This document shows positions 28,313-37,083 of a stretch of 41,409 nt of DNA, one piece after another; position 1 is the stretch's first letter, and every line of letters begins with the position of its first letter. The notes beneath the pieces were generated by a model. That model did not search any database, had not been told where the DNA came from, and saw only the letters and a list, made by a program, of their open reading frames with translations. The position numbers were made by a program, and so were the translations under genes. The stretch lies in the UHGV virus genome UHGV-0177896; one strand, written 5' to 3'. Source of the DNA: a virus.

Positions 28313-28525
28313 CTAACAGGATGCTCTGACTCGCAATTCATCCAGCAGTTTATCATTTCCCATAATGTCACTTACCCTCATCGGTAAAAAAATTGCCTTT
28401 CGACCATTACGATACATCATTGATTTTGGGGTTTCAGGGAAGTAATCCATTTCGACTATAACTGACAGGTCATCACGACGTATGACTGCGTATTTGCAAC
28501 TAAATAGTTTCTTTATTTTTTCCAC
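28313..28525 (-). CDS. Small hypothetical protein in an AT-rich islet (70 aa, GTG start)
   Basis: GTG at 28525 preceded by GGAGG 4 nt upstream. Both the ORF and the ~150 bp upstream are AT-rich. No recognisable domain. Confidence 0.35.
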   Translation of the reverse strand: MEKIKKLFSCKYAVIRRDDLSVIVEMDYFPETPKSMMYRNGRKAIFLPMRVSDIMGNDKLLDELRVRASC

Positions 28526-28704
28526 GATGCCTCCGAGTTTATAAGTACAAACGGTTATATCCACATAGAGACAAAAATATTAATCTGAAAAATATTTATT
28601 TCACGCCGTATATTTGATTATTTAATGTGCAGGTACAATGACTTTTATTTTTTGTTGTGTATATAATCAAATATATGGTTATTTTTCACCCTGCACATTC
28701 AGCG

Positions 28705-28732
28705 CGCAACAAAAAACCCGCCGAAGCGGGTT
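28705..28732 (-). terminator. Rho-independent terminator at the 3' end of the hok-type toxin transcript
   Basis: Stem AACCCGC/GCGGGTT followed on the minus strand by TTTTTTGTTG, about 70 nt downstream of the toxin stop. Confidence 0.6.
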
Positions 28733-28800
28733 TAGTGCGGGTGCGTTGAGGGTGCCTGACACATGAGAGGTGGCGAGGGATTTCTCCCCCGCCTGGTCTC

Positions 28801-28956
28801 TTACTCCTCAGGTTCGTAAGCTGTGAAGACAGCGACCTCCGTCTGGCCGGTTCGGATTCGTACCTCGCAGAGGTCCTTCCTCGTTACCAGTGCCGTCACT
28901 ATGACGGTTAAACAGATGACAATCAGGGCGACTAACATCGCCTTTTGCTGCTTCAT
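28801..28956 (-). CDS. hok: Hok/Gef-family type I toxin (51 aa)
   Basis: MKQQKAMLVALIVICLTVIVTALVTRKDLCEVRIRTGQTEVAVFTAYEPEE: a single TM helix plus the conserved RKDLCEV...IRTGQTEVAVF core. AAGGAGAAG SD; an in-frame upstream ATG at 29013 may correspond to mok. Confidence 0.85.
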   Translation of the reverse strand: MKQQKAMLVALIVICLTVIVTALVTRKDLCEVRIRTGQTEVAVFTAYEPEE

Positions 28957-29294
28957 AGCCTGCTTCTCCTTGCCTTTCGGCACGTAAGAGGCTAACCTAC
29001 ATTTGTGAGACATAGATTGGGCCTCAGATTAATGTTAAGCGTCTTGCAGGACGCGTAATGTTAACTGGGGCTTTTCTCTGTCTGCCTTACAGTGGCATGC
29101 CCGAGGCAGACAGCCTCAAGCACCCGCAGCAATCTTACCGACACCGATAAGAAAACGCTATTTTTTATTGCCAGCACCTTCTATCCAGGCTAATTTATCT
29201 GCGTCAGAACGGCGCAATGCGCTCGCCTGAGATACGTTTACTTGCCATGGTAACAACAGGTAACGGCAATTGTTGTTTCTGTTTTGTTTCCTTC

Positions 29295-29327
29295 AAAAAC
29301 CCCGGACCATCAATCCGGGGTTTTTGT
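29295..29327. terminator. Bidirectional rho-independent terminator
   Basis: Hairpin AACCCCGGA/TCCGGGGTT flanked by an A-tract on one side and a T-tract on the other. It separates the nin-like operon from the hok locus. Confidence 0.6.
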
Positions 29328-29330
29328 TTG

Positions 29331-29414
29331 TTAACCCCAACGGCAAATCGAATACACCACCAGCGCCACCGCCATCACCATTCCTACCGTTGCGAATGCT
29401 TCAGGCCAGGTCAT
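29331..29414 (-). CDS. 27-aa hydrophobic peptide, translationally coupled
   Basis: MTWPEAFATVGMVMAVALVVYSICRWG; ATG overlaps the stop of the upstream 274-aa gene as ATGA, with GGAGGA 9 nt upstream. Followed directly by the terminator. Below ORF-track cutoff. Confidence 0.35.
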   Translation of the reverse strand: MTWPEAFATVGMVMAVALVVYSICRWG

Positions 29415-30235
29415 CGTAAAATATCCTCCACACCTACCAACCCGTTCTGCTTCAGATATTCCATCGCCTTATCAGGCAAGCTGCTTAAACTATTGGCGTA
29501 CTTTAAGGAGTGAGCCAGACGCTTAACCCACATTGTTAATTCGCTAACCTGGTTACCTGGCACTGGCGACGCTACTGTCTGTTCCAGAACGTCATCAGGT
29601 ACTACCGGCTCTACTGCCAACTGACTGGCATATTTGTTAATGGTAACGATAAGCTCTTGCTCGGCCTCATCCAGACAATCACCAACACCTCGCCTGTCAC
29701 CGTCAAAATCATCGAAATCGGCACGAATCCTGGCAACCTCCCGGATTGCGGACAACACTTCACCAGGAATTAGCGGAGAGTTGGTTGACGTTTCCGAAAT
29801 TTCCCGAAAATTATTGGTTGACGAATCCTTGTTTTCCCGAAAGTTTCCTGACTGAAGCATGGCTTCGCGGCAATCGTTCCATCCTTCAGCATAATCACTA
29901 TACGCAAGAGGCCAACCTCTTATGTATTCACGCGGCAACTTATCAGGCACTACCAGCGCTGGCGATGATGCATAAAGTGGTGTTATTTTTGCCCGAAAAT
30001 CACCTACTTTATGCAGTCGCACCCACCGTTCGACTTCTGCTTTGTCAGAATACATAGCGGTGAACGTATTATATTCATGGTCAATTTGCGTGAAGGTTGC
30101 CTTCCACGCCACCGGCTCTGCTTCCAGCGATGCCAGCGCAATCCGTGCCAGTTCCATTTGTTCACCACGGGTAAGCCCGTTTTCAAGCGGGTTTTTAATG
30201 AACAATTCAATACGTTCTTTGGTAATAGTGGTCAT
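29411..30235 (-). CDS. Hypothetical acidic protein (274 aa), nin-like region
   Basis: ATG at 30235 with an AAGGAG SD 6 nt upstream. No recognisable domain. Confidence 0.55.
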   Translation of the reverse strand: MTTITKERIELFIKNPLENGLTRGEQMELARIALASLEAEPVAWKATFTQIDHEYNTFTAMYSDKAEVERWVRLHKVGDFRAKITPLYASSPALVVPDKLPREYIRGWPLAYSDYAEGWNDCREAMLQSGNFRENKDSSTNNFREISETSTNSPLIPGEVLSAIREVARIRADFDDFDGDRRGVGDCLDEAEQELIVTINKYASQLAVEPVVPDDVLEQTVASPVPGNQVSELTMWVKRLAHSLKYANSLSSLPDKAMEYLKQNGLVGVEDILR

Positions 30236-36687: not shown

Positions 36688-37083
36688 AGGAATACCTTAT
36701 TACTGGTTGTGTGAGAACTCCAGTATACCACCGAGCCTGAAGTGGTAAAAAGACAGGCGCACAACACGAAGGCGCATTTCCGGTATTCATAAAGAGTCGG
36801 TCTTGTCTGTTAAATTTAAATGGTGGGAGTGCGCCTCCGGTTGTAAATAACGACAATTGCTATGTGTAGTCTTTGGCGGCATCAGTTCTACTCCGTGGCT
36901 GCCCTGCCGCCCCTTTTTAAAGTGAATTTTGTGATGCGGTGAATGCGGCTAAGCGCACGCAGCACAGTTAAAAGCATCAGTGTTATGGGTGGATTATCCG
37001 GCGTTAATTGTTAACTGGTTAACGTCACCTGGAGGCACCAGGCACCGCATCGACAAAATTCATTTGTAAAAATGGAGATAATT

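Follow-up and report, generated by a model that had tools for sequence, protein, structure and literature searches.

The window analysed here, the whole 41,409-nucleotide (nt) viral genome UHGV-0177896, contains at 28708..29137 on the minus strand what is very probably a complete type I toxin-antitoxin cassette, a hok/mok/sok locus belonging to the hokD/hokW lineage and situated in the nin/Q region of a lambdoid prophage of Rac-like type. An earlier note on this DNA had proposed a hok-type locus at this place, and a covariance-model search agrees: Rfam RF01794 matches 28951..29125 (-) along its full model (1-157) with 118.1 bits and an E-value of 1.9e-26 (cut-off 59). The match lies on the hok-sense strand and spans the interval from the 5' end of the hok mRNA to the hok AUG. 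The RF01794 match in Stx2 phage 933W (2718..2892 (-) of locus L001) is likewise opposite to the annotated sokW and on the hokW-sense strand. Named 'sok antitoxin', RF01794 in effect models the hok mRNA leader, so the strand of its match is not the strand of the antitoxin.

The toxin open reading frame (ORF) occupies 28801..28956 (-) and encodes 51 amino acids (aa). Pfam PF01848 HOK_GEF covers it over profile positions 1-42 of 42 (E 1.8e-23, 82.3 bits, cut-off 22), and PHROG 251 'MokW-like host killing' matches at 7e-33. NCBIfam Hok models also match, yet under their strict cut-offs (49 vs 73 bits). A Shine-Dalgarno (SD) motif, AAGGAG, can be read directly in the sequence at 28966..28971 (-), 9 nt before the ATG, and the earlier description of a 51-aa Hok/Gef-family toxin with a strong SD is borne out by the Pfam match and this motif. 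Scanning a single genome per species gave 59 related loci, from which 39 distinct full-length mRNAs were aligned; these come from Escherichia, Shigella, Kluyvera, Pseudocitrobacter, Photorhabdus, Pantoea and two Enterobacteriaceae/Proteobacteria assemblies. Inactivating ORF mutations across homologues, which the earlier note had named as a sign against a working toxin, were not seen: 46 of 50 related loci keep intact Hok ORFs of 48-51 aa. Variability at the third position of hok codons is 2.4-3 times that at the first and second. A survey of Hok homologues lists HokD among the toxic ones (10.1101/2025.08.07.668861). The Tyr47 codon UAC (28816..28818 (-)) lies inside UACGAA (28813..28818), which is invariant in the 39 homologues and identical in K-12 hokD. 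At the equivalent position, a TadA site, A-to-I editing to Cys has been reported for hokC, hokD and hokE mRNAs (PMC12214031), and by analogy RNA editing may tune the toxicity of the window Hok.

Both promoters of the cassette were placed by comparison with homologues. The putative -10 of the hok/mok promoter, TAAGAT at 29132..29137 (-), stands 6 nt before a conserved 5' GGGUGC; at the same distance homologues carry TAGAAT, TATAAT, TACAAT or TATATT, and sequence homology between the loci starts at this element. With its 5' end set at the GGGUGC at 29125 and its 3' end at the terminator, the full-length hok/mok mRNA would span 28712..29125 (-), ~414 nt. The intrinsic terminator (28708..28733 (-)) consists of a hairpin with an 8-bp stem and a loop of 4 together with a T-run (28714-28733), and the dedicated terminator proposed earlier is therefore present. 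The 414-nt RNA folds with a minimum free energy (MFE) of -174.9 kcal/mol (z -7.66 vs shuffles). In this full-length fold the hok SD is base-paired to an upstream CUCUU, and the hok start region to the 3' part of the coding sequence. A GC-rich hairpin of 9 pairs in the 3' untranslated region (UTR; 28772..28793 (-)) is paired in 97.8% of alignment cells, with 3 pairs changed on both sides. In R1 hok mRNA the last stem-loop of the truncated form guards it against exonucleases (PMC9841398), and this hairpin would by analogy form the 3' end of the processed mRNA.

Upstream of the toxin, a mok reading frame of 70 codons runs over 28801..29013 (-). Its ATG (29011-29013) is 19 codons upstream of and in frame with hok and is preceded 8 nt upstream by the SD motif GAGG (29022..29025 (-)), in keeping with the earlier suggestion that an in-frame upstream start may be mok. 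The R1 mok SD is the same motif (PMC9841398). GAGG is present in 38 of the 39 homologues, with two of its four columns fully invariant. An ATG follows 6-10 nt past GAGG in 37 of them: in 25 it is in frame with hok, in 9 it is in the +1 frame because of one extra T, and in 3 it opens a mok of 19 codons, terminating at the hok start.

Folding of the mRNA predicts two conformers. In the full-length MFE structure the tac element GGGUGCUUGAGG (29114..29125 (-), mRNA nt 1-12) forms a 12-bp duplex with the fbi element CCUCAACGCACCC (28739..28751 (-), nt 375-387), and ucb, the anti-SD of mok, AAGCCCCAG (29065..29073 (-), nt 53-61), pairs with the mok SD region. A repeat finder recovered tac/fbi independently as an inverted repeat (I11). 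When the RNA is cut to 365 or 350 nt, so that fbi is removed, tac pairs with ucb instead and the mok-SD GAGGC (nt 101-105) with dcb, GCCUC (28988..28992 (-), nt 134-138). Two matching conformers have been described for R1 hok mRNA (PMC9841398). Both conformers of the window mRNA share a 5' hairpin of 13 pairs (29078..29113 (-), nt 13-48), and it is here that the earlier note had seen a 9-bp stem, CTGTCTGCC/GGCAGACAG, and read it as the fold-back element. The stem exists and extends to 13 pairs; its arms are at 29078-29086 and 29105-29113, not at about 29081..29114. The role assigned to it is not upheld, since the 5' hairpin is common to both conformers; on the modelled structures the fold-back lock is the pairing of tac with fbi 375 nt downstream.

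The predicted structure is retained across the homologues. When the window full-length fold is laid on the 39 sequences, 86.7% of cells are paired, against 40-47% with slid partners, and both sides change in 34 pairs. The percentage paired, the both-side changes and the covariation score all exceeded every shuffle; the count of further pair types in the 39-sequence alignment was no higher than in shuffles. The 5' hairpin is paired in 89.9% of cells, with 4 pairs changed on both sides and a compensatory change from G-C to A-U relative to 933W. The tac element is invariant save at positions 4, 10 and 12. MAFFT sets the Photorhabdus fbi one column off register, so that the alignment understates tac/fbi pairing, and each sequence was re-tested by direct duplex folding: all 39 retain the tac/fbi duplex, at energies of -16 to -23 kcal/mol and a mean of -19.7 vs -8.6 kcal/mol for shuffled 3' partners. 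Compensatory swaps occur from U4:A to C4:G (26 vs 11 sequences) and from G12:C to A12:U. Position 4 bulges out of the tac/ucb helix and is therefore among the few tac positions free to covary with fbi. For the alternative conformer, tac/ucb is formed in 99.6% of cells and SD/dcb in 38-39 of 39 sequences, by pairs that never vary.

A convergent Sok gene is predicted on the plus strand. The earlier note had been unable to place its promoter by eye, and a simple scan missed it too, at 8 of 12 consensus matches; comparison with homologues nevertheless puts it at 28970..28998 (+), with a -35 TTGCCT (28970-28975), a 17-nt spacer and a -10 TAACCT (28993-28998). Thirty-seven of the 39 homologues carry TTGCCT or TTGACC, 17-18 nt and TAAYCT or a close variant. 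As in R1 (PMC9841398), the -35 lies over part of the hok SD and the -10 directly adjoins dcb. The predicted Sok RNA (29005..29075 (+), 71 nt) starts at G 29005 and consists of a 14-nt single-stranded 5' tail, a long hairpin and UUUU. Projection of the 933W sokW annotation through the alignment gives the same interval in the same register, ending in the UUUU of GGGGCUUUU. The RNA folds at -29.2 kcal/mol (z -5.27) and is complementary to the mok SD and start codon.

The most variable segment of the leader, 28997..29017 (columns 108-128 of the alignment A2), covers the Sok 5' tail and the first mok codons; 55% of its cells are paired and few of its columns are conserved. Such variability would fit selection against cross-talk among the hok/sok copies of one genome.

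Outside the lineage, the anatomy can be compared with an IncFII plasmid locus (L065) encoding a 52-aa Hok whose sequence we take to be that of plasmid R1; it is a very common plasmid Hok in the database. This R1-type locus shares with the window a 5' GGnGCUUGAGGCU tac, the 5' hairpin, the GAGG mok SD, the AAGGAG hok SD and a GCCUCUUAC box, belongs to the same Rfam family (87.2 bits) and has its mok ATG 57 nt (19 codons) upstream of hok and in frame with it, as in the window. The view that R1 mok is out of frame with hok is not borne out by this in-frame copy. The two-conformer logic is likewise that of R1 (PMC9841398). The two Hok proteins are 47% identical. The R1-type locus resides on a plasmid, where it serves post-segregational killing, and the Sok hairpin of the window lineage is longer by an 18-20-nt insert that holds the repeat TAATGTTAA twice.

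Chromosomal loci that we take, from sequence and position, to be of the hokC (gef)/mokC/sokC type can be aligned with the window along the whole mRNA, with tac, fbi, the mok SD and the position of the Sok promoter in common, and their proteins are ~82-84% identical to the window Hok. They differ in a shorter Sok-target hairpin, which has no 18-20-nt insert, and in a Sok promoter with -35 TTGACC and -10 CACTCT. One locus, which from sequence and position is presumably also hokC-type (E. coli ECDA1023 chromosome, ~15-18 kb), has its 3' UTR broken just past the stop codon, and a search of this locus for an fbi element found none. The interruption would fit the insertion-inactivated hokC described for K-12.

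The closest known system is hokW-mokW-sokW of phage 933W and Sakai prophage Sp5, which is 91.8% identical to the window at the nucleotide level over 400 nt. Phage 933W has, like the window, a 51-aa toxin (46 of 51 residues the same), an in-frame 70-codon mok, a 71-nt Sok in register and a leader of the same Rfam family (113.5 bits), as well as an unannotated 27-aa ORF upstream. The toxins differ at the C-terminus (T45V, A46D, P49S and E51K), and the Sok RNAs at several positions of the 5' tail that overlaps the first mok codons. The position of the locus differs as well: hokW lies near the genome end, beyond a very large upstream ORF, while the window copy lies between replication/nin genes and Q, and 933W has no counterpart to the 195-bp spacer that bears the upstream hairpin described below.

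From this anatomy a mode of action can be proposed. The sequence predicts the toxin, mok, the Sok gene with its target, and both RNA conformers, whose pairings come from folding and comparison; we infer that 3' processing is slow, that RNase III cleaves the duplex, that Sok is unstable and that Hok damages the membrane, with R1 hok/sok and hokW-sokW as models for processing, cleavage and killing. A weak promoter would yield a stable mRNA of ~414 nt. With tac locked to the 3' fbi and the mok SD masked by ucb, the full-length RNA would be neither translated nor bound by Sok. Slow trimming from the 3' end would then remove fbi, after which tac would pair with ucb and the mok SD with dcb, mok would become translatable, and hok translation would depend on that of mok. 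The 71-nt Sok, transcribed convergently from a promoter inside the mok-hok junction, would pair across the mok SD and start codon, and RNase III would cut the duplex. Once the supply of Sok ended, the stable processed mRNA would be translated and the 51-aa Hok would damage the inner membrane.

The sole experiment on a prophage copy of this lineage concerns hokW-sokW (PMC8621323). In Sp5, HokW is toxic and SokW is an active antitoxin, with partial dependence on RNase III and Hfq; SokW is lost in a RecA-dependent manner after mitomycin C, HokW then appears in the inner membrane, and absence of the pair halves phage release with no effect on normal growth (PMC8621323). By analogy, the most likely role of the window cassette, which we hold with moderate confidence, is that Sok is lost after prophage induction and Hok then aids growth arrest, lysis and phage release. 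Secondary to this, the cassette might serve to retain the prophage or to exclude other phages. The earlier note had suggested prophage stabilisation or abortive infection; both are plausible functions for the family, and the experiment on Sp5 points instead to lysis and phage release (PMC8621323). A LexA box that might lie behind RecA-dependent Sok loss was sought by eye only; the candidate, CTGT...ACAG in the 5' hairpin, is spaced 7 nt and not 8.

Several observations weigh against the proposed mechanism and role. The hok promoter has no good -35 at 16-18 nt upstream of its -10, where an A-rich tract lies instead, and both it and the Sok promoter were passed over by a simple sigma-70 consensus scan. 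As they never vary, the tac/ucb and SD/dcb helices offer no covariation support of their own, for or against. Intact anatomy is no proof of activity, and hokW sits elsewhere in its phage; what it does there may not hold for a nin-region copy.

Other roles can be set against aid to lysis and phage release. In prophage addiction, cells that excise or lose the prophage would be left with the stable hok mRNA but without short-lived Sok, and would die. Addiction is what hok/sok is established to do on plasmid R1 (PMC8621323, PMC9841398), and the design it requires, a stable locked mRNA and an unstable antisense RNA, is present in the window. It is not, however, known from any prophage copy, the hokW-sokW phenotype concerned induction and not loss (PMC8621323), and chromosomal copies failed tests of post-segregational killing (10.1101/2025.08.07.668861); as the main role it is unlikely. 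We also doubt that the main role is abortive infection, whereby a superinfecting lytic phage would stop host transcription, Sok synthesis would end and Hok would kill the cell before the invader matured; a survey found that hok is not enriched beside defence systems (10.1101/2025.08.07.668861).

The abundance of the cassette raises a further explanation. Three RefSeq E. coli genomes hold a prophage to which the 681-bp region is 100% identical, many lambdoid phages match the region at 92-96%, and copies covering at least 80% of the cassette occur in 4005 of 5426 complete E. coli genomes, where the number of hok/sok places per genome has a median of 2 and a maximum of 9. The cassette is extremely common and its flanks are mosaic, as might be expected of a structurally intact but silent passenger, too tightly repressed to kill, as chromosomal hok loci tested in the 1990s were, and kept only by travelling with the phage module. 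The seemingly weak hok promoter fits such a passenger, and the earlier negative tests of post-segregational killing on chromosomal loci keep the idea alive (10.1101/2025.08.07.668861). Neutral decay would not, however, keep all regulatory elements across five genera, with compensatory changes and codon-level constraint, and the 92%-identical hokW-sokW has a measurable phenotype (PMC8621323); we regard a silent passenger as rather improbable.

Three of the matches carry unexpected host names. The best phage match, PP818812.1, is labelled 'Actinobacillus phage vB_Apl-pPE4' (96.3% identity, the region of the 27-aa ORF included), and near-identical fragments are found in L027 and L022, whose contigs bear the labels Xanthomonas pisi and Acinetobacter idrijaensis. 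These names probably reflect host mislabelling or contamination.

The lineage is also represented in E. coli K-12 by hokD (relF) of the Qin cryptic prophage, in which 50 of 51 Hok residues are the same as in the window. K-12 hokD has the hok SD, the 3' UTR hairpin, fbi and the terminator in common with the window, and occupies the same slot, upstream of Q-region genes in a lambdoid prophage that also carries DicF. Missing from it are tac, ucb, the 5' hairpin, the Sok gene and mok; homology to the window ends at the hok SD, with relB-relE upstream, and the Rfam leader model finds no match at the locus. These losses agree with a published statement that rearrangement cost hokD canonical components (PMC12214031). 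The arrangement in which hokD directly follows relB-relE and lacks its own leader does not occur in the window, where the native leader is present, and no relBE is annotated in the identical RefSeq prophage. The window thus holds the intact form of the locus truncated in K-12 as relBE-hokD. That the window cassette is itself a decayed relic like K-12 hokD, a toxin ORF with no working control region, as the RefSeq name hokD without mok or sok annotation might suggest, is refuted by the full leader (118 bits).

As a discovery the locus carries little weight. The presence of hok loci in prophages is already described (10.1101/2025.08.07.668861), as are the family, the lineage and the mechanism; the locus type has been known since the 1999 annotation of 933W and was experimentally tested in 2021, the sequence itself is in RefSeq, and nothing departs from the known family. 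The coordinates given here do fill a gap, as RefSeq annotates only the toxin ORF, as hokD, and omits mok and Sok, and the window shows in intact form what K-12 retains in truncated form.

The prophage identical to the window in RefSeq is Rac-like and lambdoid and adjoins yebY/copD. Along the minus strand the order is a cro-like gene, ydaT, replication genes, several small genes, a 274-aa ORF, the 27-aa ORF, a hairpin and hok, followed by an 83-aa ORF, DUF1367, YbcO/DUF1364, a DUF1133 Q-like antiterminator and the lysis and morphogenesis genes. All of these are on the minus strand, so hok is co-directional with the early-right unit. The same slot is occupied by hok in phage mEp460, MN652886 and K-12 Qin. 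The hairpin (29294..29326) is a perfect 13-bp inverted repeat (I3) flanked by A5/T5, bidirectional and terminator-like, and reads as insulating the cassette from the upstream phage genes. The earlier note had placed the cassette between two phage terminators. A scan of 28500-29450 found this one extra hairpin upstream, and downstream none but the terminator of hok itself, so that the placing is half right.

The ATG of the conserved 27-aa hydrophobic ORF MTWPEAFATVGMVMAVALVVYSICRWG (29331..29414 (-)) overlaps the stop codon of the 274-aa ORF before it. Neither RefSeq nor the 933W record annotates the 27-aa ORF, and searches of Pfam, PHROG and NCBIfam gave no match. The 933W copy (L001 2934..3017 (-)) is intact, with 4 amino-acid changes, and lies ~40 nt upstream of the hokW leader behind a different preceding gene; further copies occur in L005, L010 and L027. 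A speculative and quite improbable elaboration would connect this region with induction: antiterminated read-through of the early-right unit past the hairpin at 29294-29326 would produce a 5'-extended hok RNA unable to form the tac/fbi lock and would silence the Sok promoter head-on, making Hok a timed auxiliary lysis factor in which the 27-aa membrane peptide might take part. If true, read-through would hard-wire Hok production to the lytic switch.

The 274-aa ORF itself (29411..30235 (-)) is continuous in the window, and PGAP annotates it as two pseudogene fragments, 'DUF551 partial' and a hypothetical protein without its C-terminus. Pfam gave no match at E 0.01 or better; segments of the ORF match different PHROG families, so it looks like a mosaic or fusion gene. 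Just downstream of hok, the 83-aa ORF (28313..28564 (-)) belongs to PHROG 1813, a family with no assigned function, and its RefSeq version is shorter (70 aa). The gene just downstream of hok in K-12 Qin is also an 83-aa ORF, without detectable similarity to that of the window. An identification as Rem, which size and position would fit in K-12 Qin and other phages, was rejected: comparison with K-12 Rem and with the 'rem' of MN652886 showed no detectable similarity.

Elsewhere in the window, Rfam RF00039 places the small RNA DicF at 36861..36912 (+) (60.9 bits, cut-off 48), upstream of a kil gene in the prophage's leftward operon. Between the hok terminator and the next ORF, an AT-rich spacer (28565..28700) contains nested inverted repeats, one of 19 nt at 28606-24 / 28660-78 and a second, a perfect 10 nt, at 28624-33 / 28690-99, together with a promoter-like site matching at 10 of 12 positions (28638-28667 (+)) and directed towards hok.

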